Positions 3,624-63,537 of a stretch of 64,000 nt of DNA are shown piece after piece. Origin of the DNA: an uncultured virus (IMG/VR IMGVR_UViG_3300033068_001295) (lineage: Duplodnaviria; Heunggongvirae; Uroviricota; Caudoviricetes). Where the stretch lies: IMG/VR virus record IMGVR_UViG_3300033068_001295. The stretch is one strand, 5' to 3'. Below the pieces are notes generated by a model that had not been told where the DNA came from, made no database searches, and saw nothing but the letters and a program-made list of their open reading frames with translations. A program made the translations under genes and the position numbers. The stretch's first letter is position 1, and every line of letters begins with the position of its first letter.

Positions 3624-3627
3624 ATTG

Positions 3628-3635: not shown

Positions 3636-3659
3636 TTATTTAATTTTTAATTGTGCAAA

Positions 3660-22000: not shown

Positions 22001-22312
22001 CTCATCAAAATTATTTATAACATACTTTACATCATTTACATAACCAATAGATGATTTTCTTGTAGTAGGGTTAGTTAAGAAGTAATAAGTTCTGTCTGAT
22101 GTAATATCTTTTTGTTGTAATATTACTTTGTAGTCAGAAAAAAATACAGATAACCTGTTTGAGGGTTCATTGGTTATGTTTACCTTGTCCCCCGTCTGAT
22201 TTTCTGTATTTGCATTTAAAGCAAATGTATAATCTGTGTTTTTTAACAGTGACGGATGTGTGTCTCTGTTCATTCCAACTTTAGGTGCAGATATGTTTTT
22301 ATTTTCTTTCAA
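16028..22312 (-). CDS. Tail stabilisation/nozzle protein (crAss-like Tstab), 2094 aa
   Basis: N-terminal GMNRD...FALNA, very large size, and position after the tail tubular gene as in crAss-like phages. Confidence 0.7.
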   Translation of the reverse strand: MKENKNISAPKVGMNRDTHPSLLKNTDYTFALNANTENQTGDKVNITNEPSNRLSVFFSDYKVILQQKDITSDRTYYFLTNPTTRKSSIGYVNDVKYVINNFDEPIDCGDCESVANTLDTPLEEQTQYPLHEYIELVNDNCLVDDGETGFNFDINFPIKSPEIKVEKTGTVIYFNDYKNPPRWIRVSDVSYLFIEEVPCGDDIITECPIVSKLLQFPEHTKIQLEVDTLQTGGNLKLGVYEYYAAYCDVEGSEITNYSTPTNPTSIFDENNVVLAQTELDSFTNFSIRLKANNLDKTFQYYKVVCVEKSNVNKTESAYIVGIYPTTDNTVLHTSSQTTNDDTISNGNSVIRRAVEMSVLTKVRPPFSKAKGDVAIEGKKFMWGISKKPEINLQPVVNLFSSLIKWQSSIAKEDLYKSAVATARYKGFARDEVQPLSIRFYNKDGSYSANFPMVARPALDTDLEEVDSENDNRVSLEATTPNCTKKSRNQRWKIFNTASAEDGYCSDLENGVEVEEYTERSCIVEDVAVVSQDTIILTLEAEFTDLRSYINDNFDEVTNPTSDSYIPELALYLLNTYPDDHCSDVEDLFGDTCTTPAFESSTTQISEISTELTIGDSLEVGREYIIDVLEAGDDFSNVGYIQEGQYFIATGTTPTTWLTTVVNVQEKQFIESLFPDDYIRVRPPSFCNLYRLGTSGTPVVNTTFVANYMPCGETAFIRNFDFENTECSYAEEVQNITSTNDSVQGYFHNYTGASSVAGLLTTLDSDAISSGWNNKIHVGALWFKVQTLNRTKFILELSKILDPADDDDIANGQVVRLTFYNKCTSTTNFHSALVNLATGGMLMFEKVAGDLLVTNEAGTTTNLGTVTGNSFFVAVDCKIVDASAKFYVPPTPPDEDPTCFDSMTLARTAPPDGCFSIVTRDIENKYVEVSWTSLSIDKVETYSSKCTYFIPKVQDCEPQAYKKGDFAFWQSTENYPDNEELYNSSNLVINEEDLALLQAKDKLKFKSYFVEGTDINGNYIYKVNVDTDKPLTNLVCEPIRHFKFPDNKVSPFMSDTNGASFSDGIIFPLGIEVDSNIVSTMLLVAKNNNLITQEEFDNIAGYEIMKGDNSFAKSVIASGLGYDMYQYNQGNNKVLYANYPHNDLGDDLLHLTSSSSSTLIPHPFAGQKNNRFTFLSPDLAFNKIAIPNEVVLTGYQLGKSKAIFPNVDEHPKWTILGQKARRTAEFLAVTEVALEIAIGVANIRKEIGGWFFGGPAGAGSDAPSVAVKYTTLGIFLISALYGAVVNKGRYRYEWLKVFEDLGAAYNFANYGISTGHHNNFLVAQDEDNYTRGISVKKHLLSGDFTFRDENDGATGKPIFVNNFLRERSTFLSLGDHYFNYDLSYINYDNNKIAPQVGSRTILSQNNCDGTAESVRNVGSPYFTLKNYIPDQFGTIDSIKWLTMGHYQELDTDTTCKTIFGGNVCISRYSELRKVPIFRKNVVGTADKVPFNYSDYRNIGYPKYYCNYKSDTEYNFAGIPFPDIDSHYNFDCLSSRNRFYIKPPAKMYLFYYGITSFLVESEINCNFRYAGKQLKENFYPQAGDVINWTQESKIPIAENRDFKYNKLYSSVVSNTPFRKLDTTYSKIDWALRDNQENALVCSEPDNSENNYSDPWLIYKPLNWYEFPTKYGKLIDLIALERSEILARFENQQVVFNAVDKLADRLTPSNKNLGLAGMFATRPTELKTTDLGFAGTQNTESLSTPFGRVTVDAKRGQIFLQTGDNLEVISERNGNNLSGMTNWFREHLPFKILKYVQNVDIDNKYKGIGISLGYDNRFSRLFVTKRDYILKQPISYDEEIGFYIEEDDVRTPIYYDNSDFFEDMSWTISYKLSEGMWSSYHSLNPDYYSSHNDYFQTGFNWGEDSGTLWSHNLDNSSFQVFNGRVYPFTVEFPIINENANKFLNNIALNVEAKRWQNEWDYSQWKGVGFNKAVIYNNTQNSGVLNLVEQKTISDVRNYPMTSPDRLEQAILYTPKEGKHHFNYFYNRVRNQDVNVPIWLWDKNMINKTINTNVVNFKNHKQVLEKLRGEWFLVRLTNDEKTAFGITLKNTVNTETIY

Positions 22313-22318
22313 AACTTA

Positions 22319-23188
22319 TTAGAATTTTAAAATTGGAAGATTGAATTGTGCTGTGTGCTTTTGACTATCTCTTTTGAATTGTTTTCCCCATTTTGTGCCC
22401 AATCCTGCAAATTTAGATTCTACAATTGCAGCTCTTTTTAAAGATGGTAGTTCTTGTTTCCACATTGGATATAGTTGTGTTAGCCCTTGTGGGTTTCTGT
22501 TATTTGCAATTATGTCTTCCGCAATCATAACTTTTACGTATTGAGTTATGTATGTTAGTATATCCCCTGTGGTTATTTCAGGTATTAATATTTCATCTTC
22601 TTCATCTGTTGGTAACGCATTGTATTGTACATAAATTTGCCCCTTTGAAAAATTTGTATTTACAACAGAATTTATAATATTAATTTGGTGCAGATATTGT
22701 TTTCTTATTGAAGGGTGTAAATTCAAACAGTCCACTGCTATCCCATCTTTTTTTATGCCACTAACTAATGATAAAAATTGAGGCTCGTAGTAAAAATCAA
22801 TCAAATTGTTATTGATAGTTATTTTTTCTGTGATTATCTTGCTGTGGCAACTTTTTATATATTCTTGATTTACTTCATCGAAGTATGCGGGGTTTTCTAT
22901 ACGTTCTTTATATATATAAGAGTCTGTTATCTCTTTATTATTTAAACAAGCGTTTGTACCTATTGGCTTTACTTTTAAGGCTAATTTTAAAGACTTAAAA
23001 TCTTTAGGTAAATACCCCATAGAGTTTTCTATATCTAGAATCTTTTCTTTTACTTGACAAATATTATTTCCAAATAATCTAAGTCTTGAAATCACATTTG
23101 TTTCTATGCTTAATTTGTCTATGTCTCCGCTACTATAAAAAGATTCAAATGAGCTTTCTATCTCTGCTATAAATTCTTTTATGTTCAT
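22319..23188 (-). CDS. Tail tubular/ring protein
   Basis: TNFSKGQIYVQYNALPTDEEDEILIP motif; synteny with Tstab. Confidence 0.65.
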   Translation of the reverse strand: MNIKEFIAEIESSFESFYSSGDIDKLSIETNVISRLRLFGNNICQVKEKILDIENSMGYLPKDFKSLKLALKVKPIGTNACLNNKEITDSYIYKERIENPAYFDEVNQEYIKSCHSKIITEKITINNNLIDFYYEPQFLSLVSGIKKDGIAVDCLNLHPSIRKQYLHQINIINSVVNTNFSKGQIYVQYNALPTDEEDEILIPEITTGDILTYITQYVKVMIAEDIIANNRNPQGLTQLYPMWKQELPSLKRAAIVESKFAGLGTKWGKQFKRDSQKHTAQFNLPILKF

Positions 23189-36333: not shown

Positions 36334-37359
36334 TTATTTTAAACAATATTTTTCGTAATTCTCAGTTATTAAATCCTTAATTTCAGGGTTTAAAATTGCA
36401 TTTTCAGCCGCGCCTTTTAAGTGATTTCCAAGAAGTGTATTATCTAAATAATATTGTTGTCTTTTCCATTCTAGTTTCTGTTTGATGTGCAACTTAGTTA
36501 ACATAGAAAATATATCCATCTTATCTTTTGTTGCAGGATTTTTTGTCATTTCAAATGCCTCTAAAAATCTTTTAGCATTATCATATCCTGTTTTTTCGCT
36601 TTCAAACAATTTCATCACACTTCTCTTAAGTGTTTCTTTATCTGACTCTCTTACTTGTGAAACTTGCATCCATTCTAAAATGCAATATAATGTATCGTCT
36701 TTTTCAGGGTCTAAAGTAGCAAATAAAGTAGAAAATGTTGCAATGGCATCAAACTTATTAGCTTGTTTTTCCTCTTGTAATGAAATGATTTTTTCTCTAT
36801 TTCTTACGCAGTATTTTGCAGTTCTTTGTAGCATTGGGTCTTTTTCTCTAATCTCACAAATTTTTCCTTGTTTTAAAGCGTGAAATAAATCAAAAAGTTC
36901 GTCTGGTCTTGAAGTATCAAACTTTCTTCCTGTATAAACCTTGTACATATAAGGTCGGATTCCTAATGAATCATTTCCGCCCCAAAAATCATTGTTTGTG
37001 GCATCTACCTTAATTTGATAATAATCTTCGTAAGGCTGTTTAATGTGCTTATTATAAGCTAAAAGTAATGATGCTTTATCTGCTTTAGACATTGTGAAGT
37101 TACATGGAGATGCATCTTCAAATCCTGTGTCCCATCTTCTTGTACCATCTTCATCAAAGGGAATTGAATGAATCTCTCCAATACCTTCCATTAATAATTT
37201 TGTAGTGTTGAATGTTTGAAAGCCATCTGGTGCATCTCTATCCAATTTCCCTACAATTTCATAAGTACTTCCTATGATAATATCTGTGTTTGCTACTCTA
37301 ATTGTTGTCTGCGAGTTAGCTACAGTTTTTCTTTTTGTTGTCGTTTTGGTTTCTGACAT
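36334..37359 (-). CDS. Structural protein following MCP
   Basis: Synteny; NNDFW motif. Confidence 0.5.
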   Translation of the reverse strand: MSETKTTTKRKTVANSQTTIRVANTDIIIGSTYEIVGKLDRDAPDGFQTFNTTKLLMEGIGEIHSIPFDEDGTRRWDTGFEDASPCNFTMSKADKASLLLAYNKHIKQPYEDYYQIKVDATNNDFWGGNDSLGIRPYMYKVYTGRKFDTSRPDELFDLFHALKQGKICEIREKDPMLQRTAKYCVRNREKIISLQEEKQANKFDAIATFSTLFATLDPEKDDTLYCILEWMQVSQVRESDKETLKRSVMKLFESEKTGYDNAKRFLEAFEMTKNPATKDKMDIFSMLTKLHIKQKLEWKRQQYYLDNTLLGNHLKGAAENAILNPEIKDLITENYEKYCLK

Positions 37360-37389
37360 TTTTCTGTATTTCTTTTTTGTAAGTTTTAC

Positions 37390-37416
37390 CCCCTTACAGA
37401 ATTATCTAATAAGGGG
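37390..37416 (-). promoter_or_regulatory. Stem-loop after MCP (mRNA stabiliser or attenuator)
   Basis: cccctta/taagggg inverted repeat without a clear T-run. Confidence 0.45.
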
Positions 37417-37431
37417 ATATATACTTAATTA

Positions 37432-39111
37432 TTATTTGTACCCTTTTCTTGCGCTTTGCTCAAGTTCTATTCTTACAAATTTACTTGGGTCTTTTAAAAA
37501 TAAGGCTCCGAACCCGTAGATAAAGAATGAACTATGCATTGTTTTAGCTGATGCAATGATGTCTGTAGCTTTATCAACAGAGTATCTACCATTTTCACGA
37601 CCCCAATAAATTTTGTCTGTTTTTGGTGTGACTAAGTAGATATTTGCCTCATTGTTATTTCCAACTCGCTCAGTACCTTTAGGCATATCTTGATTGTTAG
37701 AATACATTTGGTCAGCGGCATCCCATATAATCATACTATATGTAGTATAATCTTGTCCATTAGGATTCATTCCTCTCAAATTCTTATCTGTGATATTCAC
37801 ATGATTCAAAGACATATCTTCTTCTAATTCAACCATTCCGATTCCTGGTAAGTTAACCGTAGTAAAACGAATAGGTTTTAATGCTAAATTGTAAAGGTCT
37901 CCTGTAACAGGGTTGTCAATCAATCTATCTGCTCCTAGTAACGCAGCAATGTTTGTCAATTGTTGATTTACTTCGTCTTTAAAAATAGCAAAGACATTAT
38001 TAAATGCTTCTGAACCACATTTAAAACGGATTCTTGAGTCAATTGTGTTTTTTAATGGGTTTGCTTTGAATACATAGTCACGAGCTTGTTTGATATGCTC
38101 ACGAGTGATTCCACCACGTCTTCCATAAGTGATTACAAAACCTCTGCTCATTTGATGCCAAAGTCCTTCGTTATATCTTACAGTTCCTTTTTGTGTTTTG
38201 ATTGTAGCTCCTCTTTGGAACATCAAACTTGTAGACATGTTTCTATTAAATTTTTGAATAGCTAACATTTCTAAAATAGACCCTACTGTATATTTGTGCG
38301 TGGCATTTGGAGTTTTATCTTGCATTAAGACAACTTCATTACCTTTTTTATAGAACATCTCAATCTCTTTGATGTAATCCATAGTTGCAGTAGCACCCCA
38401 TTTTAAATCAACTGAGTTAGCTTTTCCTGTAAAGGTTGTTTCAACCCCTTGAGGTGAGCCTAGTTGGAATTCACATGTCATATATTGTGTTCCACCTGGC
38501 ATGTGAACTAAATTTAGCTTTTCACCATATTCAGGTATACCACCACCTGTTTCAAAATACTCAATATCTTTTTGCAATAAAAAGTTTGGATAAGTTTTGT
38601 CTGGGTCATTTGTTACGATAACTACAGTGTGTTCAAAACCATATCCTAAATCTCTTACAGGTTCAGAATCAGAAACAGCAATTGCCTCTCCGTCCATACC
38701 ATCTGCGGTTAATGTAGTATTTGGCGCAAACTCTCTGTTCAATACAATTTTAAATGTTGTTCCGTCAGCCCCTGGTAAAATTTGGTCTGATGTATCATCT
38801 GCTGTTTTTAATCTGTTATCTGTTTCCACAGGTAGGTCATAAGTAAACTTACTATCCCATCCGTTCAATTCAAGAATAGCGTCGTTTTGAAGCACGTCTT
38901 GAAATAAAGGTACAGAGCTAATAGATTGTTGCCCAAAGAACGACTGTAATTTTAAGTGGTTCTTTAATGGGTCTTGCATATACCATGTATTCAGTGTTCC
39001 GAAATCTTGGTATCCTTGCTGATTAACTAATGACTGCGCCATAGAAGCCGTAGTGGCTTTAATAACTACATCACCGTTTCTTGTTGGTACGTTGTTTGAA
39101 TAAAAACTCAT
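37432..39111 (-). CDS. Major capsid protein
   Basis: 559 aa, two genes after portal; NEGLWHQM motif; followed by a stem-loop. Confidence 0.75.
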   Translation of the reverse strand: MSFYSNNVPTRNGDVVIKATTASMAQSLVNQQGYQDFGTLNTWYMQDPLKNHLKLQSFFGQQSISSVPLFQDVLQNDAILELNGWDSKFTYDLPVETDNRLKTADDTSDQILPGADGTTFKIVLNREFAPNTTLTADGMDGEAIAVSDSEPVRDLGYGFEHTVVIVTNDPDKTYPNFLLQKDIEYFETGGGIPEYGEKLNLVHMPGGTQYMTCEFQLGSPQGVETTFTGKANSVDLKWGATATMDYIKEIEMFYKKGNEVVLMQDKTPNATHKYTVGSILEMLAIQKFNRNMSTSLMFQRGATIKTQKGTVRYNEGLWHQMSRGFVITYGRRGGITREHIKQARDYVFKANPLKNTIDSRIRFKCGSEAFNNVFAIFKDEVNQQLTNIAALLGADRLIDNPVTGDLYNLALKPIRFTTVNLPGIGMVELEEDMSLNHVNITDKNLRGMNPNGQDYTTYSMIIWDAADQMYSNNQDMPKGTERVGNNNEANIYLVTPKTDKIYWGRENGRYSVDKATDIIASAKTMHSSFFIYGFGALFLKDPSKFVRIELEQSARKGYK

Positions 39112-47399: not shown

Positions 47400-50057
47400 T
47401 TATCGTCTGTTTCTGTAAAAAATTCTATCTCTATTCCCGTAAAATGATTTTTCTCTGACTATTAGTTTTTTATTTTCCTCTGATTCTTTATGTTTCTCAA
47501 CTGCTCTAACTTTCCATTTATGAGAACTCTGAAGATAGTGGATATAGCCCCACGCCCCAAGTGCGGCGGTCAAACGGTCAACATTGAGATTCTCATTCCA
47601 TTGAATAATTTCTTCTAAAAGCCATATATCGTCTATTCTTTGAACACCTTTTAGTCTTACTATTGTTCCATCTTCATTTTCATATTCAAATTCTTCATTA
47701 CAGTATTCAACAAATAAATTAAATAAAACTCTTTTAGTAGTATTCGGTTGCCACCCAAATTTACGTTTTAAGGTGTTAGGGATATTAAATGTTGTTGAAA
47801 AATCTAAACTTGGGGCTAAATATTTTTCAGTTAATCCTTTTCTATCTAAATATTCTTTTATTGCAAAATCTTCATTTTCTCCAAATGCTGTTCCGTCTAT
47901 CTGATAAAGTTCCATTAGTAATAGCCACTTTTCATAAACTTCTTGATGTCTCTTAGGTCTAAAGCTTAAAGAGGCTACTAATTTTTTACTAAATTTATCT
48001 CCTAATATCTCATTTTTCCAAATATATTTTGTAGCAATACTGTTTTCTTCATTTCCTTCTTCCTGCTTATAATCGTCAAAGCCCGTAGTGTAAGTACCGT
48101 ATTTAACTTTTTCTGTTGGGGGGTCTTCTAATATTAAACAAGGGGCATCCATATTAGGAGAGCTTATTGGAAATTCTACTAAAGGTTTAGTCGAAACGTC
48201 TAATTGAATTTTACCATTACTGTCCCTATAAACATCCCTTCTTCTATCCCATTTTCCTGTTTCTATTAAATGCTGTTTATGTGCTTTTGCTTCATTTATA
48301 GGGAACGGATTAGTTCTTCCACTCATAAAAATCTCTGAGGGTTTGATAGGTATATATACAACCTCTTTTGTATATGCTACTTTATTTCCTCTCTTTTTTT
48401 CTCTGGTTTCTTCAATTTTTTTTGTGGCTTTTTCCCAATCAGTTACTCTTAACTTTATTTTTTTTAATCCTTCCCCTTCTTTACCTAAATAATCGCCTAG
48501 TGTGGAATCTATTTTCGGCATGTCTACACAACATTGTCCTGGAATAAACGTGCCAAAAGGTCTTAATCTGTCCTCTTGCCAGCTTCTATATTCTACAGGT
48601 ACGCCTCTTTCTAGTATTTCCCAGTTCATGGGCATAACTTCATTGGAAACAGGGTCATTTAACACTGTAAGAGCATCAACACTAAGTGCTTCACTGCCAC
48701 CCGTCCCGCTTAATATAGGGTAGCATCTAATCAATCCGTCTGCACCTTTTAAAGCGGGTTTAATCCCCTCTAATGCAGCAATAAATTTGCTCTTAAAAAT
48801 TTCATCAAATACAAATTCATCTGGGGTAAACCCTGCTAGAATTTCTTCATTGTTTCCACTATCTGTATTAATTATGTACAGTGTAGACAAAAGTATTGTC
48901 TTATTAGACTTTGTTTTTAAACCTAATTCAACCTTATCTTTCCAATCATTTGCCACATTAAAAACAGCAAAAGCAGGGTTTTTATATTGTATATCTGTTT
49001 TAAAATTTTTAGCAATCTGATTTAAATCTTTTGCCGAACCACCTGCACACAACAATTCTTTTTTTCCTATTGTGGCAGCGTGTCCTAGTTTAGAACTTTC
49101 TAAAGTTGTTTTTGCGGCACGTCTAGTAGCGGCAATAAAAGTTATAAGAATTTTATTATTTTTTGCATTCTCATAATTTTCAAACACCATTACATCTGAA
49201 TCTCTTAATGGTGGATTAACAATTTTATCCACAGATTCAAACTGCTTATTTTTATCATTAAAAATACTGTGAGGTATAGGAGTGACAAAAACATTCACAT
49301 GATAATACATCCAACCTGAAATATAATATCCATCTACAACTATCCCTCTCTCTAATTTGTTAAATTCTTTAACGTAGTATTCTAAAGTAGAACGCTCCTG
49401 TTGCCAATAATGTTTAGATGTGTTCCAAATCGGAGGATTAGGGTTATGTATGTGAAAATCGTTTCCTGGGTCTGCATTGAAATCAATCCCCATTTCCTCT
49501 AGTCGTTTATTTATCTCAGGATATATTTCGGAAAGTACTTTGTGCATACTTAATGGAGCTTTTGTACCATTTAAAAACTCTATTCCCTCTGTCTCTGCTT
49601 CTGACGAATCGTCCTTTATATTTAACGCAGAAACCGTATCGTCAATAGAAGATACGGCTTTAAATAAAGTATTATGAAAAGCTATTTCATTTGCTCTAAG
49701 GTCTAAGTCCTCTATGCTTGAAATATTTGATGTAGAGATGTAATCATCTGCTCTATCTGTATGTATGCTAATTATACTTAAAGTTTCTTTTACAAAGTCT
49801 TTAAATATTTTTAAATGGTGGTCTCCTTCTGCCCTTTTTACTGAAACTTTTAACCTTTCAAGAATTGCTTTTATTAGTGCCTCTTGTACATTAAATTCTT
49901 CTAGTCTTAAATCAACTGTTGTTTTTCTTCTCCCTTTAAAACCTTCTTCTACATCCTTTGCTTTTAGTTTAGACCAATTATTTTCTTGGATGTATTTTTT
50001 ATATTTTTTAAAGTGCGGAGAATTTTTTTTAATTAACAGTTTTATCTTTTCACTCAT
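47400..50057 (-). CDS. terL: Terminase large subunit
   Basis: ATRRAAKT (Walker A-like), FVFDE (Walker B), SGTGG coupling motif, GFDDYKQ and NVDRL nuclease motifs; upstream of portal. Confidence 0.85.
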   Translation of the reverse strand: MSEKIKLLIKKNSPHFKKYKKYIQENNWSKLKAKDVEEGFKGRRKTTVDLRLEEFNVQEALIKAILERLKVSVKRAEGDHHLKIFKDFVKETLSIISIHTDRADDYISTSNISSIEDLDLRANEIAFHNTLFKAVSSIDDTVSALNIKDDSSEAETEGIEFLNGTKAPLSMHKVLSEIYPEINKRLEEMGIDFNADPGNDFHIHNPNPPIWNTSKHYWQQERSTLEYYVKEFNKLERGIVVDGYYISGWMYYHVNVFVTPIPHSIFNDKNKQFESVDKIVNPPLRDSDVMVFENYENAKNNKILITFIAATRRAAKTTLESSKLGHAATIGKKELLCAGGSAKDLNQIAKNFKTDIQYKNPAFAVFNVANDWKDKVELGLKTKSNKTILLSTLYIINTDSGNNEEILAGFTPDEFVFDEIFKSKFIAALEGIKPALKGADGLIRCYPILSGTGGSEALSVDALTVLNDPVSNEVMPMNWEILERGVPVEYRSWQEDRLRPFGTFIPGQCCVDMPKIDSTLGDYLGKEGEGLKKIKLRVTDWEKATKKIEETREKKRGNKVAYTKEVVYIPIKPSEIFMSGRTNPFPINEAKAHKQHLIETGKWDRRRDVYRDSNGKIQLDVSTKPLVEFPISSPNMDAPCLILEDPPTEKVKYGTYTTGFDDYKQEEGNEENSIATKYIWKNEILGDKFSKKLVASLSFRPKRHQEVYEKWLLLMELYQIDGTAFGENEDFAIKEYLDRKGLTEKYLAPSLDFSTTFNIPNTLKRKFGWQPNTTKRVLFNLFVEYCNEEFEYENEDGTIVRLKGVQRIDDIWLLEEIIQWNENLNVDRLTAALGAWGYIHYLQSSHKWKVRAVEKHKESEENKKLIVREKSFYGNRDRIFYRNRR

Positions 50058-50497
50058 TACTCTTTCTCAATAAAGTTTTTCACAATCTTTGTGTATTCTT
50101 CTTTTATTTTTTCTCTTATTTCTTTATTTTTTTGCGGATTTACTTCTTCTGCCGTTCCGTTTTTAATTGTGTAGATTTGTTGTTGTTTTACAAATTCTTC
50201 TATTTCTGTTTTTATTTCTTGCGGAATTTTTACAACTTCTTTTGAAATCTCATAATAATTTATAAGTTTGTTTTGTAAAAGAAGTAAATCGTTTTGGTAA
50301 TGCGCAGGTTTTTCATTTATATCAAATAATCTATCAGAACATAGTTCTAAATCATCAACGTTTTCTTTTACGAATTTTTGATAATTTTCTCTGTCTATTT
50401 TTATTTGTGGCGCGATTTCTTTTACAAAGTTTTCATACTCTTTGTATTCTTTGTATGCTGTTTCAAATATGTTTTCTATTTCTCTCATATTACCCAA
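50057..50497 (-). CDS. Hypothetical protein
   Basis: Coupled ORF upstream of terL. Confidence 0.6.
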   Translation of the reverse strand: MGNMREIENIFETAYKEYKEYENFVKEIAPQIKIDRENYQKFVKENVDDLELCSDRLFDINEKPAHYQNDLLLLQNKLINYYEISKEVVKIPQEIKTEIEEFVKQQQIYTIKNGTAEEVNPQKNKEIREKIKEEYTKIVKNFIEKE

Positions 50498-50753
50498 TTA
50501 TTTGTTTTTGTGCTATCCAAAAATCAAATTCTTGCTCATTTAAAGGTTCGTCTTTATCTTCTTGGATTGTATTGAATCTTTCAAGTGCTTCATACATTTC
50601 TTGGTCTGTCATATAAAAGAAATGTTTTCCTTTTGTATTTTGTTTGCGGACAACGCTATATAGAATTTCTCCTACTGTCATTGTTGGATTCTCTGTAATA
50701 GCTCTTTCTATTTGTGAGAAGATGCTTCCTTTGTAGTTTATTTCTTTAACCAT
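50490..50753 (-). CDS. Hypothetical protein
   Basis: Coupled ORF. Confidence 0.6.
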   Translation of the reverse strand: MVKEINYKGSIFSQIERAITENPTMTVGEILYSVVRKQNTKGKHFFYMTDQEMYEALERFNTIQEDKDEPLNEQEFDFWIAQKQIIG

Positions 50754-50758
50754 AATTT

Positions 50759-51076
50759 TTAAATGATGTTTCCTTTTATTTTTATCTGTGTTTTTACTTC
50801 TTTTCCCGCCGATTTATAACTTACTTTTAAAGTTTTTGCAAATGCTCCTCGACTATTAGTGCTCTTATATTCAATAATGCCTTGTCCATTTTGGTCTATT
50901 TCGGATGCAGTGCAACCGCAAGTCGCTAATACAGAGATATTTGTAAGTTTATCACCAACTAGCTTATAGTCTACAATAGCTTTTGCTCTATGTGGAATAT
51001 CTCCAAAATTTAATACGTGTTGGTTATTTTCAAAATAGTACTTTGCTGTGTTTGGTTTTATTATTTGTATTTCCAT
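50759..51076 (-). CDS. DUF1573-like Ig-fold protein
   Basis: NFGDI...ATCGCT...G.F.K...IKG signature. Confidence 0.7.
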   Translation of the reverse strand: MEIQIIKPNTAKYYFENNQHVLNFGDIPHRAKAIVDYKLVGDKLTNISVLATCGCTASEIDQNGQGIIEYKSTNSRGAFAKTLKVSYKSAGKEVKTQIKIKGNII

Positions 51077-51079
51077 TTT

Positions 51080-51268
51080 TTAACGTATAAAATAAGCTGG
51101 TTTTTCATTTTTAGTTCCCTGCGTGTTTTGGCGAGAACTATCAACCAATAAAACAGGGCATCCATATTGTTTTTTTAAAAATTTTGTTATCTTTTTATAA
51201 CTTAATTCTTGTATTTCTGCCGCTAAATGTGTTACTTCTACTACTAATAACCGTTTTTCTTTTTTCAT
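51080..51268 (-). CDS. Hypothetical protein
   Basis: Coupled small ORF. Confidence 0.5.
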   Translation of the reverse strand: MKKEKRLLVVEVTHLAAEIQELSYKKITKFLKKQYGCPVLLVDSSRQNTQGTKNEKPAYFIR

Positions 51269-51630
51269 TGTTTTTTATTTTCTATGTAAATTGATTTCCA
51301 TTTTCCTTTTTCACAATCTTCAGTTTCCTCAAAACTTTTGTAATAGATACTGCAAATTTCACATGCTGTGCAGTTTCCTAAATTATCTTCCTCTGCGTTT
51401 CCTGTAATCCAAGAATAAAAGTCAGATAGTGCTTTTATGGTTCTGACTTTTAAACTTAGGGTTTCTTGGTTTTTTGTATTCCAACTACATACAGCACATA
51501 TTCTTCGCCTTTTAATAACATAGTCTTCTTGGTTTTTTTTCTTTAATCTTGAGAGCACGATTATTTTTATTTTATTCAGTGTTCGTCTCATTTTGGTTTC
51601 TTTGTATTTCTTTTTTGTCGGCGGAATCAA
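51265..51630 (-). CDS. Cys-rich putative Zn-binding protein
   Basis: RRRICAVC...CTACEIC...CEKGKW; true start may be the internal Met (MRRTL). Confidence 0.6.
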   Translation of the reverse strand: MIPPTKKKYKETKMRRTLNKIKIIVLSRLKKKNQEDYVIKRRRICAVCSWNTKNQETLSLKVRTIKALSDFYSWITGNAEEDNLGNCTACEICSIYYKSFEETEDCEKGKWKSIYIENKKQ

Positions 51631-51925
51631 ATCTTTCTAATATTGGTTTTTTACAAAATTTTCCCGCGCTATGGTATGGATTATAACAAGCATCTAAAAA
51701 TCTGTCTGTCTCTTCTCCTTCTCTTACCTCTCTATGATACATTGTTCCAAAAACAGGGATTGTATATGCATAATTATTACTGTTCTTTATATCCTGTTCT
51801 AAGTACTCAAATAAACATCTTAAAAGGTCGTCTGCGTCTTCTTCTGTTACATTTTTTCTTTTGCGCGAATATGCCTCACATAAATCCTTTCTGTAATATA
51901 TTAAATCATCATACTTAACTTCCAT
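51572..51925 (-). CDS. IHF/HU-like protein
   Basis: Helix-helix followed by YTIPVFGTMY. Confidence 0.45.
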   Translation of the reverse strand: MEVKYDDLIYYRKDLCEAYSRKRKNVTEEDADDLLRCLFEYLEQDIKNSNNYAYTIPVFGTMYHREVREGEETDRFLDACYNPYHSAGKFCKKPILERFDSADKKEIQRNQNETNTE

Positions 51926-52286
51926 TTATAAAATTTATTAAAAAACACTTTCTACCTGAATTATCTATAAATACCTGTTTTAGATTTAAAAGTTCTTCAT
52001 TAACGACCTTAAGTCTTTGATTGTTTGCATGCGGTCTTAAAAAACCTTTTTTCTGCAAAGTACAATTCAGTGTATTTAGATTTTCAGGTGTTATATCTAA
52101 ACTAATTCTTATAGATTTTTTAGTTGTCAAAGAATATCCATTTAGTATGTACTCTCTGAGCACCGTCCTTTCTCTGAAAGAAAGTTCTTTATTCAAAACG
52201 GTTTTGGAAAATATATCCATCACTGTATCTAATAAAGAAGTGTTATTATTATACTTATAATCTACTTTGTATATCAGTGGTTGCAT
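51915..52286 (-). CDS. Winged-HTH DNA-binding protein
   Basis: LSFRE...IRISLDITPENLNTLNCTLQKKGFL. Confidence 0.5.
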   Translation of the reverse strand: MQPLIYKVDYKYNNNTSLLDTVMDIFSKTVLNKELSFRERTVLREYILNGYSLTTKKSIRISLDITPENLNTLNCTLQKKGFLRPHANNQRLKVVNEELLNLKQVFIDNSGRKCFLINFINGS

Positions 52287-52538
52287 TTAGTCTTTTATTA
52301 CTTGACAAATAATATAATCTTGTTTTTCTATTACAAATAAAGATTCTCCAAAACAATCTATTTCTTTTCCTGCCACCTTGTCTGTGTGGTATAAAACAGA
52401 ATCTCCTACTTCATAGTTGTCTGCTAGTTTTCCTTTATAAAGTACTTCCGTAATTACCTCTTTAGATATTCCAAATTCTGCCGTTCCTTTTTTAGGATTC
52501 CTTACTACTATTTCTGATTTTTTAAATACTGGTTTCAT
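52287..52538 (-). CDS. GroES-like protein
   Basis: EVLYKG...EVGDSVLY...IEKQDYIIC. Confidence 0.45.
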   Translation of the reverse strand: MKPVFKKSEIVVRNPKKGTAEFGISKEVITEVLYKGKLADNYEVGDSVLYHTDKVAGKEIDCFGESLFVIEKQDYIICQVIKD

Positions 52539-52833
52539 TTATTTCTTTAGCTAATAATTGTTTTTGTCTTCTTTTTACGAGCGATATAAAGTTTTTAAAT
52601 ACCACTTTATAATATATTTTTTCTGTTATAAATACCGCATCTATTTTCTGATTTCGGCAAAAGAGTATTTGTATTACTTCTGGCTCTAATGTAACTTTAG
52701 GTATTATAATTTCTTCTCCAAAATGGTATTGGTATATTATACAATTTTTATTTACTTTAGTTATAACAGCACCGCGGACAGTAAGATAGAAATGTATAAA
52801 CTCTAATAACCTTTTATAGTACTTCCTTTTCAT
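52522..52833 (-). CDS. Hypothetical basic protein
   Basis: First gene of the leftward unit; probable start MKRKY. Confidence 0.5.
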   Translation of the reverse strand: MKRKYYKRLLEFIHFYLTVRGAVITKVNKNCIIYQYHFGEEIIIPKVTLEPEVIQILFCRNQKIDAVFITEKIYYKVVFKNFISLVKRRQKQLLAKEINETSI

Positions 52834-52839
52834 CTTGTG

Positions 52840-52931
52840 CAAATATACCTACAATAATTGAAAAATCCTAATTTTTTTAGTTAAATTTTTCTTAACCGTA
52901 TTTTTTTATAATAAAATTTTTTATATATTTG
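52840..52931. promoter_or_regulatory. Divergent promoter pair at the strand switch
   Basis: TATATTTG on minus (52840-52847) and on plus (52924-52931). Confidence 0.65.
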
Positions 52932-52963
52932 TCCGTTAAAAACATTTTAACTACTTTTGTACC

Positions 52964-53209
52964 ATGCAAGAAAACAGAGATAATTTAGGTATTGAAGAAT
53001 TTGTACAAGAGATTTTAGATAGAGTTTCTAAAAAAGTAATATCAAAGGAATACATATTTGATAATGATGATTTTATAAATAAGATACTAGAAGACATGTA
53101 TGAAATATATCTTGAAGGTGCAACTTTAAATTGCCTTTCTGATTGTTTTGAAAGTTTTTTCTACAACTTATTCTTATTTGAACCGCCAACTGAAGATATT
53201 AAACGTTAA
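52964..53209 (+). CDS. Acidic hypothetical protein
   Basis: ORF after the plus-strand promoter. Confidence 0.55.
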   Translation: MQENRDNLGIEEFVQEILDRVSKKVISKEYIFDNDDFINKILEDMYEIYLEGATLNCLSDCFESFFYNLFLFEPPTEDIKR

Positions 53210-53261
53210 AATTTTCTTTATGTATTTTGAAATGTCAAATATATGTTGTAATATTGCATAA

Positions 53262-53990
53262 TAAATACTTTGGCGAGTAGATATAAAAGTTCCAAAATTA
53301 TCATAGTGAGGAACACTTCTAAGTCTTATGGACTATTGTTACAATAGAAGTTTATCTGTTAGTGGATAATCGGTTGCAAACGTCTAACAGTTTCATTTTA
53401 TTTTTATTGAAAATACAAGTTTTGTTATTATTTGTCGCTATTTAATATAAAATCAAAACATATCGATTAACCATCTGATTAGAACAACCCTTAATAGCGA
53501 CTTTAAAGGGCTTTTTCTTTTTAGGTGGTTTCGTTTTTTTATGACGTGTGGCTATGAGAAATCATTCACGTTGCGATAAGAGGAAAGTTCTCTTATTTAA
53601 GCTAAAGGGAAAGGAAGTTAATTCTATCTCCGCCTGAGGATGGCAGTTACACAACTTCTGCCAATTTTACGCAAGTAGGTGTTTAAATAAATAATAACAC
53701 TGAATACCCTTTGATAAGGTATAGTAATAGAACAAAAAGTTACGAGAGAATAATATAGATTCGGTGTTTTTCGACTCTCGGAGATGATGGTAGTCAACCT
53801 CAAGCGAAGTTTATACTTTGAAAATCTTCAATACACCCAAACTTTACTTAGAGTTATCAAATTTAATTTTAATGGGGGTTTGGGGGTGTTCTTTTAGAGA
53901 ATTAAATATTTCCTTAGCTCTGATTACCTTTGAAGTATAAACTTCACTCTGTTTCTTCTCCGTCGGTTTTATACAGAATCTATTTAAAAC
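53262..53990 (+). ncRNA. Candidate large structured ncRNA or cluster of ncRNAs
   Basis: No ORF of 60 aa or more; many nested stems with plus-strand G.U pairs and GNRA loops (see findings). Confidence 0.6.
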
Positions 53991-54052
53991 TGATTTTTAA
54001 TGTTTATAGTAAAATAATTGTAGATTAATTAGGCTATTTAAATTTTTATTAT

Positions 54053-54060
54053 TATATTTG
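54053..54060 (+). promoter_or_regulatory. TATATTTG -7 element upstream of helicase
   Basis: Consensus match. Confidence 0.55.
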
Positions 54061-54140
54061 TACTCAGAACTTAAAATAATCTTATAAAGTATTACTTACT
54101 AAAAATAGGTAAAAAAATAACTGCAAAAACGATTTAGAGA

Positions 54141-55643
54141 TTGATGAGATATACACTAAGACCAAGGCAAGAAGAAGCTGTACAAAAAATAGAAAATTTT
54201 ATATTAAATTCTAAAACTAATCATGGAGTATTTGTTTACCCAACAGGTTTTGGAAAATCTTTAATTATTAGTACATTAGCTCAAAAGTTTACAGATATGT
54301 ACTTTATAAATGTTACTAGCAGTAAAGAACTTGTTTCTCAAAACTATGAGAAATATAAATCTTACGGTTTTGAAGCATCAATATGTTCGGCTTCATTAAA
54401 TAGTAAAAATGTAAGTCATGTTACTTTCGCTACAATTGGTACGTTGGTAAAATTTGTAGACTTTTTTAAAGATAAGAAAGTAGTTATTGTTTATGATGAA
54501 GCACATACTGCATCTACCAAAGGCTCTCAAATAGATTTATTTTTAAGACAACTAAAGAACTACAGATTAGTTGGAGTCACTGCAACACCATTTAGGTTAT
54601 CAAATAGTATGCAGGGTTCTATGTTAAAAATGATGAATAGAGACAGAGATTGTATTTATAAATCAATAAATGATGTAGTTCAAATATCAGAAGTTGTAGA
54701 GCAAGGATATTGGAGTAAATTAATTTACGATATTAAAGATGTGGATGAAACAGATTTAGAATTAAACACAACAGGTTCTGATTATACAGATAAAAGCATA
54801 GAAAAATTTAAAGATGTTAATAATATTAATCAAAGAGTTATTGATGAAGTTAATAATTTAATATTAGAGGGTAGAAAATCTATTTTAGTTTCAGTTCCTT
54901 TTATTGCAGACGCAGAAGATATTTCAGCTAAAATAAGCTGTTCTAAGGCACTTTTTAGTGGAATGGATAATAAGGAAAGAGACAACATTATTAATGACTT
55001 TAAAAGCCTTAAATTAAAAGTTGTAATTCAATGTAAAATACTTACTATAGGTTTTGACCACCCACAATTAGATGCAATAGTCTTAGCAAAACCAAGTAAT
55101 TCTTTAACTTTCTTTTATCAGATTATAGGCAGAGGTGTAAGAGTCCACAAGGAAAAATTAGATTGTAAGATAGTAGATTTAAGTGGTAATTGTAATAAAT
55201 TTGGAAATGTTGAAACAATAACTATTGAAAATGAAAAATTGACAAAAGGATGGGCTGTGTTTAATAATGATATGCTATTGAGTAATTATCCTTTAAATAC
55301 AACAAATCGTCCAACAAAAAAAAGTTTACAAGCTAAAGTAGATTGGGATGCTGAATCTGAAAAAGGTGTTAGTGTAGATTTAATTATGTATTTTGGTAAG
55401 TACAAAGATAAAAAAGTGTCAGAAGTAATTAAAGAGAATAAATCATATTTAACTTGGCTATTAGACCAAAAAGATTTTAATTGGTATGGAGATAAAGGGA
55501 CTAAGTTAAAAGAATGTATTGAAAGACATTTAGGTGTTTTTATAGAAAAGTATAAAGTTATAAATACAATTAACTCAAAAGACATTATAAATAGTTATAC
55601 AAATTCAATTAAAACAATAACAGATTTAAATAATTTATGGTAA
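54141..55643 (+). CDS. SF2 (DEAH) helicase, UvsW/RadD-like, with C-terminal FGKY/YLxW (DUF3820-like) domain
   Basis: PTGFGKS, DEAH, TATP, GFDHP, QIIGRGVR; FGKYKDK...SYLTWLL. Confidence 0.9.
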   Translation: MMRYTLRPRQEEAVQKIENFILNSKTNHGVFVYPTGFGKSLIISTLAQKFTDMYFINVTSSKELVSQNYEKYKSYGFEASICSASLNSKNVSHVTFATIGTLVKFVDFFKDKKVVIVYDEAHTASTKGSQIDLFLRQLKNYRLVGVTATPFRLSNSMQGSMLKMMNRDRDCIYKSINDVVQISEVVEQGYWSKLIYDIKDVDETDLELNTTGSDYTDKSIEKFKDVNNINQRVIDEVNNLILEGRKSILVSVPFIADAEDISAKISCSKALFSGMDNKERDNIINDFKSLKLKVVIQCKILTIGFDHPQLDAIVLAKPSNSLTFFYQIIGRGVRVHKEKLDCKIVDLSGNCNKFGNVETITIENEKLTKGWAVFNNDMLLSNYPLNTTNRPTKKSLQAKVDWDAESEKGVSVDLIMYFGKYKDKKVSEVIKENKSYLTWLLDQKDFNWYGDKGTKLKECIERHLGVFIEKYKVINTINSKDIINSYTNSIKTITDLNNLW

Positions 55644-55668
55644 ACTTGCACATGTAAAAAATAATACA

Positions 55669-55676
55669 TATATTTG
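55669..55676 (+). promoter_or_regulatory. TATATTTG -7 element
   Basis: Consensus match with TTG about 20 nt upstream. Confidence 0.6.
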
Positions 55677-55696
55677 TAGAATAAAAATAAATAATT

Positions 55697-55927
55697 ATGT
55701 TTGAAGTAGATAATACAATGTCTTATAAAACACCGCCATTAATCAATAATGATTTTAAAGAGCTTAATTCAGAAATAGATGGCGTACATTACTTTGTAAA
55801 TAATAATTGTACTGTTGAAGTAGATTTAAATAATCAATGTTATAATATTATATATAAAGATATTTCTTATATTAAAAACTTAGAATACCTAAAAGAAACT
55901 ACCATCGCAGTAAACTATATATATTAA
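55697..55927 (+). CDS. Hypothetical protein
   Basis: ORF after promoter. Confidence 0.5.
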   Translation: MFEVDNTMSYKTPPLINNDFKELNSEIDGVHYFVNNNCTVEVDLNNQCYNIIYKDISYIKNLEYLKETTIAVNYIY

Positions 55928-55967
55928 GTTTACCTAAACAAAACCATAACTAATCTTACAAAAAAAA

Positions 55968-56120
55968 ATGAAAATAACAAAGAAAGAAAAAGTATATAAC
56001 TGTCCAAATTGCGGAGAGAAAGAAGTAAAATACACAGTTGTAGAAGACGCAGATGAAGTGACAATTACTATTCATAAATGCACATCATGTAATTACCAAG
56101 CACACTTAGGAGATTTATAA
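55968..56120 (+). CDS. 50-aa zinc-ribbon protein
   Basis: Manual translation MKITKKEKVYNCPNCGEKE...KCTSCNYQAHLGDL*. Confidence 0.65.
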   Translation: MKITKKEKVYNCPNCGEKEVKYTVVEDADEVTITIHKCTSCNYQAHLGDL

Positions 56121-56465
56121 ATGTTAGTAAGTAAAAGAATTTTATTAAAAGCCTCTACACTACTAAACGTTTTTTGCAAACAAAATAAATCGAACTTCTA
56201 TTTAATTGAAAACGGACTTCCGCCACCAAAAAAAGATAAAGTACAGAAATGGCTCAGAGAAGAATACAATATAGATATTTGCATTCATTTAATAGGTTTT
56301 TATGGTGATGTAAGAACGTTTAAAAATTACGGTGGATTTTATACAATAGAAGATGAAATATGCTATTTAGGAATGTGTGAAAAACTCACAACTTATGAAA
56401 AAGCACAAGAAGAATTAATAACCTTAGTGTTACAAAGATTAGTTTATGATGATGATTGTAGGTAG
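56121..56465 (+). CDS. Hypothetical phage protein
   Basis: QKWLREEYNIDI...TYEKAQE motif. Confidence 0.6.
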   Translation: MLVSKRILLKASTLLNVFCKQNKSNFYLIENGLPPPKKDKVQKWLREEYNIDICIHLIGFYGDVRTFKNYGGFYTIEDEICYLGMCEKLTTYEKAQEELITLVLQRLVYDDDCR

Positions 56466-56487
56466 AGTAAGAATGAAATTAAGTTAA

Positions 56488-57633
56488 ATGTTCAAAAGAT
56501 TAAGAGTAAAATTGTATCCGACACAAAAACAAAAAGAAATGTTTAACATGCATTTTGATGGGTATCGTTTTGCTTATAATTTATGTCTTCAATATAAAGA
56601 AACATTATGGAAACACCACAAATTAAACGTTTCTGGATACACAATGCAATCTGAATTATTTGAAATAAGAAAACAAAGCGATTGGCTTATTAAATGCAAA
56701 GCGGAGTGTATTAGAGATGCCGCTTTAAATGTTGAGAAAACCTATAAAAAGTTTTTTAAAGGGAATGGATTTCCAAAATATAAGTCTAAACGTGGCGAAC
56801 AAAGTTTTACAGCACATCAATCAATAAATTGTAAAAACAACAAAATAAGTTTTTTTGGAGAAAAAATTAAATTTAAAACTTCTGAAAAGCACAATCAACT
56901 ATTAGAAACACACAAGATAAAACAATGCACTTTTAAAAAAGATTTGTGTGGAGACTATTGGGCTACTTTGTTGATTGAAACGGAAGATGTGAAATCACTT
57001 CCGAAATCAGAAAATACAATTGGAATTGATTTAGGAGTTAAGGATTTAGCTGTTACTTCTGAAGGACAAGTATTTGAAAACAAAAAGTTTTTACAATCTA
57101 ATTATTTTAAGTTAAGAAAGTTACAAAGAAGACTTGCAAAAACTAAAAAAGGCGGACAAAATAGAGAAAAATTAAGAATCAAAATAGCAAAATTATGTAG
57201 AAAAATAAAAAGACAAAAAGAACACCATTATCATCAAATTACAAATGAATTACTTAGCGATAACCAAACAATAGTAATGGAGACTTTAAATGTAAAATCG
57301 ATGATGGAAGAAAAGAAAATATCAAGAAATATTTCAGACGCTTCTTGGGGCTTATTAACACAGATGTTAGAATACAAGTGCAATTGGTATGGAAGAAACT
57401 TAATAAAGATAAATAAGTGGTATCCGTCTTCAAAAACTTGTTCTAACTGCGGAAATGTAAAAGAAAAGTTATTGCTTTCCGAAAGAGTTTACAACTGTGA
57501 AGTTTGTAAAATAGAAATAGATAGAGATTTAAACGCCTCTATAAATATAAGAAATTCAGGGATAAAAATACCCGAAGTGACTGTGGAGAATGCGAACATT
57601 AGTTCGGTCGATGAAGCAGTAATTATTAACTAA
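56488..57633 (+). CDS. tnpB: TnpB RNA-guided endonuclease (IS200/IS605/IS607 family), no TnpA nearby
   Basis: N-terminal KLYPT HTH, RuvC I GIDLG, RuvC II VMETL, Zn finger CSNC...CEVC, RuvC III DRDLNASINI. Confidence 0.92.
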   Translation: MFKRLRVKLYPTQKQKEMFNMHFDGYRFAYNLCLQYKETLWKHHKLNVSGYTMQSELFEIRKQSDWLIKCKAECIRDAALNVEKTYKKFFKGNGFPKYKSKRGEQSFTAHQSINCKNNKISFFGEKIKFKTSEKHNQLLETHKIKQCTFKKDLCGDYWATLLIETEDVKSLPKSENTIGIDLGVKDLAVTSEGQVFENKKFLQSNYFKLRKLQRRLAKTKKGGQNREKLRIKIAKLCRKIKRQKEHHYHQITNELLSDNQTIVMETLNVKSMMEEKKISRNISDASWGLLTQMLEYKCNWYGRNLIKINKWYPSSKTCSNCGNVKEKLLLSERVYNCEVCKIEIDRDLNASINIRNSGIKIPEVTVENANISSVDEAVIIN

Positions 57634-57650
57634 AATTAATAAAATTTTGA
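57555..57650 (+). ncRNA. Putative omegaRNA/reRNA overlapping the tnpB 3' end
   Basis: Locally GC-richer; gggata-aaaa-taccc and cgaac-atta-gttcg hairpins and actgt/gcagt pairing; expected position for TnpB RNAs; boundaries approximate. Confidence 0.45.
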
Positions 57651-58006
57651 AAACACATAGATTTTACAAAGATGAATTAGGTTGGTTTATTGATTTAAAA
57701 CGGTTTCCATTTAATAGGTCTCATTTGGCTATGGTTTGTGGCGCGGATGAATTACTAGAAAAACTGTCAGGCGGAGATAAAGAAGTGTTTTTGACAATAA
57801 GTACAAAACCTATTGATAATTGTTATGATTGTTTACACAGAGTTTTAAAACTAGGACTCCTAAATGGAGCTATTTATTCTCCTAGTTCTTTACATGCGCC
57901 GTTAAAAAATAAAATAACAGAGACAAATCAACTATGGTTATGTGCTGTAACATTACTAGTGTTTGGGCATTATCCTAAGAAAATATATTTTAAAATTGGA
58001 AAATAG
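57647..58006 (+). CDS. Hypothetical phage protein
   Basis: WFIDL...LAMVCGADELL...WLCAVT...FGHYPKKIY. Confidence 0.6.
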   Translation: MKTHRFYKDELGWFIDLKRFPFNRSHLAMVCGADELLEKLSGGDKEVFLTISTKPIDNCYDCLHRVLKLGLLNGAIYSPSSLHAPLKNKITETNQLWLCAVTLLVFGHYPKKIYFKIGK

Positions 58007-62944: not shown

Positions 62945-63340
62945 ATGCCACCAAAAAAAATAAAAAACCCAAAAGTACCGAGAACAAGAAATAACTTTAC
63001 ACTAACCGAATCTGCTTTTTGGGGATTTATTAGGTCTACATTAAGAAATGCATCAAGATGGTGGAAACCTATTACACAATGTAAATTAGAGTCAAGAAGA
63101 GTTTACAAGGGGGCTAAAAAACTACAAAAATGGGAGTACCAATGTAACCACTGTAAAGATTGGTTTATGGAAAAAGAAATACAAGTAGACCATATTGTTG
63201 ATGCAGGGACACTCACTTGTGGAGAAGATTTGAAAGGGTTTGTAGAAAGATTATTTTGCGAAGTGGGTGGATTTCAAACACTCTGTAAGCCTTGTCATCA
63301 AATAAAAACTAATAATACTCGTAATAAAAAAGAAAAATAA
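62945..63340 (+). CDS. HNH endonuclease
   Basis: CNHC...VDHI...LCKPCHQIKT. Confidence 0.85.
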   Translation: MPPKKIKNPKVPRTRNNFTLTESAFWGFIRSTLRNASRWWKPITQCKLESRRVYKGAKKLQKWEYQCNHCKDWFMEKEIQVDHIVDAGTLTCGEDLKGFVERLFCEVGGFQTLCKPCHQIKTNNTRNKKEK

Positions 63341-63373: not shown

Positions 63374-63397
63374 TAAAGAATTTAAGAAGAGAACCGT

Positions 63398-63537
63398 TAG
63401 ATGCACCTTAGCTGGTAGTAAATAGCAAACGTCATACTTCTTTATTGGCTAAAGCCGTTAATACCAATTAAAATAAGACGGAGAGTGTAGGCAAAGGCAA
63501 TTCCCTACGACAATATAGTACTTAACTGCCAAATCTA
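63398..63537 (+). ncRNA. Candidate structured leader or small RNA
   Basis: Nested stems closing a multibranch structure directly after a promoter. Confidence 0.4.

Follow-up and report, generated by a model that had tools for sequence, protein, structure and literature searches.

The window, by which we mean the whole 64,000-nucleotide stretch of DNA analyzed here, is a phage-like genome piece with a G+C content of about 27%. A minus-strand block of structural and packaging genes, which includes the gene for the terminase large subunit (47400-50057) and genes for virion proteins, ends at 52842. The plus-strand block on the other side of the strand switch carries an SF2 helicase gene and also encodes a RecA/UvsX-like gene and an HNH endonuclease (62945-63340). 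A TnpB-like gene (56488-57633, plus strand) with OrfB_IS605, Cas12f1-like TNB and HTH_OrfB_IS605 domains lies in this early region as well, and is preceded by a 114-amino-acid ORF without a known family. Judged by the helicase, Cellulophaga phages phi4:1 (46% amino acid identity) and phi17:2 (likewise about 46%) are the closest phages with a name. The host is probably a member of the Bacteroidota. Closer relatives were found through the helicase and are 68-71% identical; they comprise an IMG/VR record (L001) and three metagenome contigs (L004, L005 and L006), with L005 being near-identical to L001. The features from the strand switch to the helicase gene are as follows.

52843-52963: divergent strand switch; the last minus-strand ORF ends at 52842 and the first plus-strand gene starts at 52964
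52924-52932, plus strand: early-type promoter -7 box TATATTTGT within the strand switch
52964-53209, plus strand: gene for an 81-amino-acid protein that opens the plus-strand block; its homologue is a 90-amino-acid ORF at L001:1431-1703
53225-53256, plus strand: Bacteroidota-type promoter-like site (TTTG, 19 nt, TAATATTG), found by scan, with one mismatch in the -7 box
53281-53405, plus strand: small RNA-like element ending in a T-run; counterparts at L001 1957-2078 and L005 1457-1578
53488-53522, plus strand: hairpin CCCTT/AAGGG (the hairpin itself at 53488-53510) and then a T-run, forming the left border of the variable slot
53520-53543, plus strand: leader motif TTTAGGTGGTTTC ... ATG; in the alignment with L001 and L004, homology with the relatives stops at the ATG at 53541
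53541-53579, plus strand: mini-ORF of 12 codons, read from the sequence, with an acgtg/cacgt hairpin that has a GAAA loop
53580-53754, plus strand: 5' non-coding part with the hairpins ataagag/ctcttat and tggcag/ctgcca; its fold is not above chance
53755-53983, plus strand: the rod, whose MFE fold is an imperfect hairpin of 229 nt; 65 pairs make up its main axis, from which two side hairpins branch off
53984-54140, plus strand: AT-rich spacer with the helicase promoter box TATATTTGT at 54053-54061
54141-55643, plus strand: SF2 helicase gene (Pfam ResIII, DEAD and Helicase_C)

The box TATATTTGT recurs ahead of plus-strand genes (52924, 54053, 55669, 59765 and 63366), sometimes as TATATTTGT(A) and often with TTG(C/T) about 19-20 nt 5' of it, and is kept in the relatives (L001 1824, 3761 and 9014; L004 1661). 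We take the box with its TTG(C/T) to resemble the Bacteroidota -33/-7 promoter type, and the consensus behind the promoter-like call at 53225-53256 is likewise what we assume the Bacteroidota type to be. The L001 helicase operon is preceded by an identical box (position 3761). Since the helicase box at 54053 is 3' of the rod, the rod lies outside the promoter-proximal leader of the helicase gene. The first-pass annotation had located its candidate RNA at the early/late strand switch, which is incorrect: the switch occupies 52843-52963 and the rod 53755-53983, and between them are the conserved 81-amino-acid gene (28% identity to the L001 90-amino-acid ORF, E 2e-5 by pairwise BLASTP), the small RNA-like element and two hairpin/T-run sites.

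The small RNA-like element is the only non-coding piece that can be aligned with L001 and L005 (85% over 127 nt, with flanks that do not align). This 125-nt element has three hairpins, lies downstream of the promoter-like site at 53225-53256 and has no Rfam match; three pairs of its middle hairpin survive although both partners have changed, and a contig from an RNA library (53198-53399) covers most of it. A second small RNA motif is found at 63378-63448 (plus strand) of the window, in phi4:1 (the L002 locus) at 4018-4092 and in one further locus, L014, at about 385-460. Its invariant strands GAGAACCGTTAG and AGCAAACGTCATAC flank a variable hairpin, and the three closing stems differ but pair (aagaag/cttctt, cacagtgag/ctcactgtg and agatgtag/ctatgtct). 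The motif stands behind a TATATTTGT promoter in the window and after tRNA genes in phi4:1 and L014, is common to phages whose helicases are only 46% identical, and has no Rfam match; a covariance model of it (R1) found only its two training sequences among the loci examined. These two nearby small RNA motifs are better supported than the rod.

The variable slot and its occupants

The hairpin and T-run at the left border are also present in L001 and L004, with different stem letters that still pair; across the window, L001 and L004 loci the stems are CCCTT/AAGGG, GACTTA/TAAGTC and ACCTTC/GAAGGT. The local z of this structure is -6.16 in L001 and -5.95 in L004, and the scan for consensus terminators did not call the copy at 53488-53522. 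The exact TTTAGGTGGTTTC motif occurs once in the window, and in L001 and L004 the hairpin/T-run plus a TTTAGGGG.TTTC...ATG leader stand ahead of the slot ORF. In the window, the mini-ORF begins at the ATG that is equivalent to the start of the relatives' slot gene, and this ATG at 53541 is followed by 12 codons, a stop and unrelated non-coding DNA as far as the helicase promoter. Judged from the sequence, the 600 bases from 53541 to 54140 form a non-coding cassette that occupies a variable slot in the early plus-strand region, and the bounds of the slot are the hairpin, T-run and leader ending in ATG on the left and the helicase promoter on the right.

Some 130 nt located 5' of the slot leader are common to L001 (2380-2552) and L004 (100-293) and end in the hairpin/T-run. 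This conserved piece may represent a further small RNA or else a regulatory leader; its counterpart in the window (53406-53522) is shorter and different. A 39-nt look-alike of 53537-53575 (34/39 positions), where the acgtg/cacgt hairpin opens the mini-ORF, occurs in a public sequencing run (X2), within an otherwise unlike contig of 2126 nt and directly after an TTATTATTTGT box that resembles window 53426-53436. The look-alike may be due to chance, as a rough estimate has it, or may be a small shared promoter-proximal module. We considered on the basis of this look-alike that the mini-ORF is a gene remnant and rejected the idea, because the X2 contig in frame also stops within two codons. A hidden remnant of the slot gene was rejected as well, as a tblastn search with the slot proteins of the relatives found no trace of one in the window.

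The survey of slot genes covered all relative loci with upstream DNA, and in L001, L005, L004 and L006 it found a plus-strand ORF of 390-450 amino acids directly before the helicase operon. Since the relatives fill the slot with plus-strand genes, transcription of the slot from the plus strand is likely. The L001 slot protein matches BT4734-like_N (25.3 bits), which makes it primase-like, and matches PriCT_1 weakly. The L004 and L006 slot proteins have no Pfam or PHROG family, belong in the Atlas to unnamed viral clusters only, and are weakly alike (E 3e-4); overall, little or no relationship is seen among the slot genes of L001, L004 and L006. The slot of L004 additionally holds a gene for a GIY-YIG endonuclease. 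From this comparison, the rod sits in a variable, recombination-prone slot that would normally be expressed from the plus strand. The rod itself is absent from L001, L004, L005 and L006, and RNALfold found no analogous rod upstream of the helicase gene in L001, L002, L004 and L006.

Before its helicase gene, phi4:1 has, all on the plus strand, 24 annotated tRNA features (2 of them marked as pseudo) and a mostly non-coding stretch of about 1.4 kb, and L001 has one tRNA upstream of the helicase gene. The mostly non-coding stretch of phi4:1 (3594-4983), which extends from the tRNA array to the helicase gene, is comparatively high in G+C by eye and has only two tiny hypothetical ORFs annotated. 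Apart from the tRNAs it matches nothing in Rfam, and more RNAs that escaped annotation could be located there.

Fold, strand preference and copies of the rod

The MFE fold of the plus strand over 53740-53995 contains 81 pairs (46 A-U, 22 G-C and 13 G.U), and the side hairpins of the rod are at 53785-53802 and 53894-53923. All the rod stems that the first-pass annotation had picked out by eye recur in this fold, among them the outer stem atagattc/gaatctat (53755-62/53976-83) and the stem ggaga/tctcc (53779-84/53957-62). The perfect 13-bp helix at 53806-18/53933-45, which had been described as extended by G.U pairs, is lengthened by G.U and A-U pairs into a stack of 17 pairs (53806-22/53929-45), and beyond a C.A mismatch two further pairs bring this central helix to 19. 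The stem proposed at 53830-42/53878-90 is present but imperfect, with 12 of its 13 positions paired, one G.U and one A.G mismatch. The central interruption of the rod is a 7-nt strand facing a side hairpin, and the arms are only about 60% Watson-Crick complementary. The mean pair probability of the fold is 0.85, and the closing stem, the central 17-pair helix with its two-pair extension and the apex reach 0.93-0.96.

Comparison with dinucleotide shuffles, a generic test for structured RNA that the first-pass annotation had put forward for its entire candidate, separates the rod from the DNA that precedes it. The rod folds to -67.6 kcal/mol versus -49.0 +/- 4.1 kcal/mol for the shuffles (z -4.49; 0/200 as good), whereas the supposed 5' multibranch domain (53530-53740) has a z of -1.74 with 12/200 shuffles as good, and its tac-GCAA-gta hairpin is missing from the predicted fold. 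The earlier argument that GNRA loops are typical of RNA depends on this 5' part. The stretch 53520-54010 as a whole has a z of -2.44. G+C is 0.34-0.365 at 53500-53900 versus 0.21-0.29 in the flanks.

RNALfold was applied to both strands of the window, and among structures of at least 120 nt with z below -3 the segment 53755-53984 (plus strand) ranks first with a z of -5.88. The next best structures, at -5.41 (22082-22321, minus strand) and -5.28 (37248-37489, minus strand), are in coding DNA, which indicates that scores this low arise without RNA function. In a cruder, composition-corrected scan with 256-nt sliding windows, those over the rod were 2nd and 7th of 1994. The fold of the rod is real and ranks first in the window, but it is the end of a continuous tail rather than a lone outlier.

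With RNA parameters, the minus strand folds to -53.6 kcal/mol (z -2.79, versus -4.49 for the plus strand). DNA parameters give the strands similar scores (z -2.86 and -3.17, both better than shuffles) and a fold of just -27 to -28 kcal/mol, whose centroid retains only some of the central pairs, about 30 of 75. G.U pairs account for 13/81 pairs on the plus strand versus 8/72 on the minus strand, as counted on the folds; a global alignment puts the arms out of register. The earlier argument that the G.U pairs single out the plus strand holds in its direction, but the excess is modest, and the plus strand is T-rich (89 T, 62 A), which by itself leads to more G.U pairs. The predicted folding advantage of the plus strand is present but modest.

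Copies of the rod were sought in several collections. A distant blastn search of 52800-54200 against INPHARED phages gave no match, IMG/VR had 0 hits to three patterns that represent the rod or its 5' neighbour, the 5' part, and a pattern scan of 185,579 species genomes gave 6 hits, all of them unrelated by blastn. Capture of the cassette from a host was rejected, as 53541-53995 had only chance-level matches to 401 genomes from the class of a Flavobacteriales MAG (BLAST matches of 27-60 nt at E up to 0.001 in 5/401 genomes).

Close variants of the rod are present in public sequencing runs, of which 18 are indexed as holding part of 53000-54600 and four were examined. At a depth of 2-4, and in pieces that are not necessarily from one genome, two of these runs yielded contigs of the rod. 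In X4, from groundwater, a 338-nt contig over 53587-53924 carries the 5' part and the rod together and has 6 substitutions and 2 gaps (about 98% identity). Helicase pieces from X4 differ at 10/149 and 33/249 positions, and the high identity of the X4 contig may reflect recent recombination. In X3, from freshwater, there are 10 substitutions and 2 gaps over 53714-53850 and 6 substitutions and 1 gap in a contig over 53874-53943, so that the rod is about 90% identical versus 0 differences in 151 nt upstream (53352-53502). The contig from the RNA-library run (X6) covers 53198-53399 only, with the rod outside it, and contigs show neither strand nor ends.

All 5 indels in these copies were located (after or at 53796, 53820, 53873, 53891 and 53894), and every one is in a loop, a bulge, a helix-loop border or the base of a side hairpin, so that 5/5 spare the 65 main-axis pairs. 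Substitutions were located for 4/22, at three sites: 53829 C>T, found in both runs, is in an internal loop, and 53903 and 53904, found in X3, are in the weak A-U stem of a side hairpin, leaving the main-axis pairs untouched. With the listed differences, the variants fold to -67.8 and -70.4 kcal/mol versus -67.1 kcal/mol for the window. Since indels favour homopolymer runs, which are often located in loops, and 4/22 substitutions are visible, this pattern agrees with a conserved fold but falls well short of testing it. The rod copies of the three samples are 90-98% alike, and no compensatory pair was scored among these near-identical copies.

Coding capacity, RNA families and known elements

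The description of the stretch as ORF-free was correct. All six frames of 53500-54145 hold mixed TAA, TAG and TGA stops, the longest stop-to-stop frame in the stretch is 67 amino acids, and the close variants have 1-nt indels within the small ORFs. We also considered a protein gene read under an alternative genetic code and rejected it; since each frame contains all three stop codons, reassigning one of them rescues no gene. At the gathering score, Rfam 15 (4227 models) gave 0 matches over the whole window, and ARAGORN found 0 tRNA or tmRNA genes in the window. The Rfam models include ROOL, GOLLD, 6S, ribozymes, group I/II introns and RNase P. With E up to 10, the region 52800-54200 gave two junk matches (E above 7), rli59 at 17.6 bits (cutoff 100) and RAGATH-30 at 15 bits (cutoff 59.5), both outside the rod. 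These results agree with the first-pass annotation, which could not assign the element to tRNA, tmRNA, RNase P or a group I/II intron, and the strong Rfam match that would have ended its claim to novelty was not found.

A scan for Bacteroidota-type promoters found no plus-strand promoter-like site in 53541-53755, and a sigma-70 scan gave 12 sites versus 12.1 expected. The scan for consensus terminators found 0, with none behind the rod. As a stand-alone small RNA gene the rod fails, being without a promoter or terminator of its own.

RNase III processing hairpins occur in phage early transcripts, an example being the R sites of T7. Like these sites, the rod is an imperfect double-stranded RNA hairpin (as predicted) with internal loops that is positioned between early genes of the same strand, and neither it nor they have their own promoter or terminator. 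Unlike them, the rod has 229 nt and 65 main-axis pairs and is several times longer. We know of no RNase III-type phage sites described in the Bacteroidota. 6S RNA is a rod-shaped regulator of RNA polymerase, and the rod shares with it, including its Flavobacteria form, a length of about 200 nt and a rod-like shape in which a central interruption separates the closing stem from the apical one. In contrast to 6S RNA, the interruption is not a large open bubble, and no 6S model was among the Rfam matches to E = 10. RNA II of ColE1 is a primer/origin transcript; the rod is comparable as a predicted folded transcript beside replication genes with a G-rich run, GGGGGTTTGGGGG, at 53874-53886 on the sense strand, but it differs in having no sequence or structural homology to RNA II and no iterons or DnaA-box cluster.

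The rod is also a non-coding phage stretch in a region that has tRNA genes in the relatives, as in the case of ROOL and GOLLD. These are ornate multi-domain RNAs of several hundred nucleotides (compare PMC12286853), whereas the rod is a simple 229-nt hairpin with no Rfam match at any threshold tried. Structured-RNA candidates from IMG/VR phages (PMC10690425) are reported to rest on comparative alignments. The rod resembles those candidates in being an intergenic phage element proposed from structure; it differs from them in having no alignable relatives beyond near-identical copies, with negative pattern scans in IMG/VR. A full-text literature search, at the level of titles and abstract openings, turned up no such element, and the supplements of PMC10690425 may bear on its novelty.

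Possible origins and roles of the rod

What is the rod? The reading we prefer, with a probability of roughly 0.4, is that it is a clade-restricted structured RNA element transcribed on the plus strand. From the rank of the fold, the strand advantage with RNA parameters, the raised G+C, the plus-strand expression of the slot in the relatives and the retention of the rod in two further samples with indels that spare the structure, we infer that the rod is transcribed, that the plus strand is the one that is read, and that the RNA may have a function. The rod would be transcribed from the same entry as the relatives' slot gene, and its RNA would act as a long double-stranded hairpin. The most plausible role would be that of a processing or stability site, an RNase III-type substrate, in the early transcript. 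Alternatively, the rod may be a stand-alone non-coding RNA that is released from the early transcript. The zone upstream of the helicase gene provides supporting context as a place for RNA genes, with the small RNA-like element here, a tRNA in L001 and tRNAs in phi4:1. The rod is 3' of two hairpin/T-run sites and 5' of the helicase promoter, though, and could therefore lie in a poorly transcribed gap. The folded transcript that the first-pass annotation favoured over a DNA structure thus keeps part of its support, namely the strand bias with RNA parameters and the plus-strand slot genes, and is weakened by the absence of the rod in the relatives and the similar z-scores of coding DNA. It is possible, though less likely than not, that a gene slot has been taken over here by a so far undescribed non-coding RNA, the rod, which would be restricted to this clade of phages. 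In the boldest form of this idea, the transcript stands in for the slot protein; because the slot gene of L001 is primase-like, the rod RNA could act as a primer/origin transcript for the helicase. We consider this form very improbable, and the earlier suggestion of a primer/origin RNA receives no direct support from the locus, which has no iterons and no DnaA-box cluster.

Nearly as likely as a structured RNA element is a non-functional leftover. Recombination or deletion would have removed the slot gene and left a scrap with an old, decayed inverted duplication, and such foreign or rearranged DNA would persist only as the event is recent in a small clade. This explanation is in keeping with the mosaic nature of the slot, in which homology breaks off precisely at the ATG at 53541 and is picked up again at the helicase promoter, in which the genes of L001, L004 and L006 have little or nothing in common, and in which L004 also carries a GIY-YIG endonuclease gene. 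It also agrees with a rod that is known only from near-identical copies (90-98%) and lacks its own promoter and terminator, with the similar z-scores of coding DNA and with a 5' part at the level of chance. More difficult to reconcile with a leftover are arms that are about 60% complementary in copies that are 90-98% alike, since the duplication must then persist for long in a compact genome. The fold is moreover the best in 128 kb of strand sequence, 5/5 indels between the copies spare the main helices, and the local G+C is raised.

An element that acts as DNA, such as a replication origin, a cruciform or a single-strand initiation site, is unlikely. The rod is 158 nt upstream of the helicase gene and adjoins a spacer with 0.215-0.22 G+C, the slot gene of L001 is primase-like, and with DNA parameters both strands beat the shuffles (z -2.86, -3.17). 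The cumulative GC skew, profiled over 50000-58000, is lowest near 52900, about 850 nt from the rod, but the coding strand changes at the same place, so that no origin is needed to explain the minimum. The arms, with a DNA fold of just -27 to -28 kcal/mol, are too imperfect to extrude readily as a cruciform, and there are neither iterons, with no direct repeat family in 53541-54140 beyond two 9-mers seen twice, nor a cluster of DnaA boxes: 52800-54300 has one DnaA-box-like site, with one mismatch, which is in the small RNA-like element and not in the rod, and any 1.5 kb of the window has at most 3. It is very unlikely that a small non-autonomous mobile element (MITE- or PATE-like) once inserted into the slot and left the rod as its remnant. 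The outer 8-bp stems atagattc/gaatctat do look like terminal inverted repeats, and the TnpB-like gene (56488-57633) and the HNH endonuclease gene (62945-63340) are nearby. The outer stems as read from the sequence are, however, not flanked by a target-site duplication, the rod is a single copy in the window with no likeness to the surroundings of the TnpB-like gene, and IMG/VR, the species genomes and the 401 genomes of the Flavobacteriales class hold no copies.

If the rod is a leftover, it is a cautionary case, in which the top fold of a window, located in an ORF-free gap and having G.U pairs and raised G+C, would still need covariation or a transcript to count as evidence of an RNA gene. 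Should the rod work as an RNA, this would be an instance of a phage that fills the slot of a protein gene with a structured RNA, among environmental phages of the Bacteroidota. The slot would then be a natural experiment, since some phages hold a protein gene at this place and others an RNA. The early regions of these Bacteroidota phages appear to be rich in RNA genes, including tRNA arrays and small conserved motifs.
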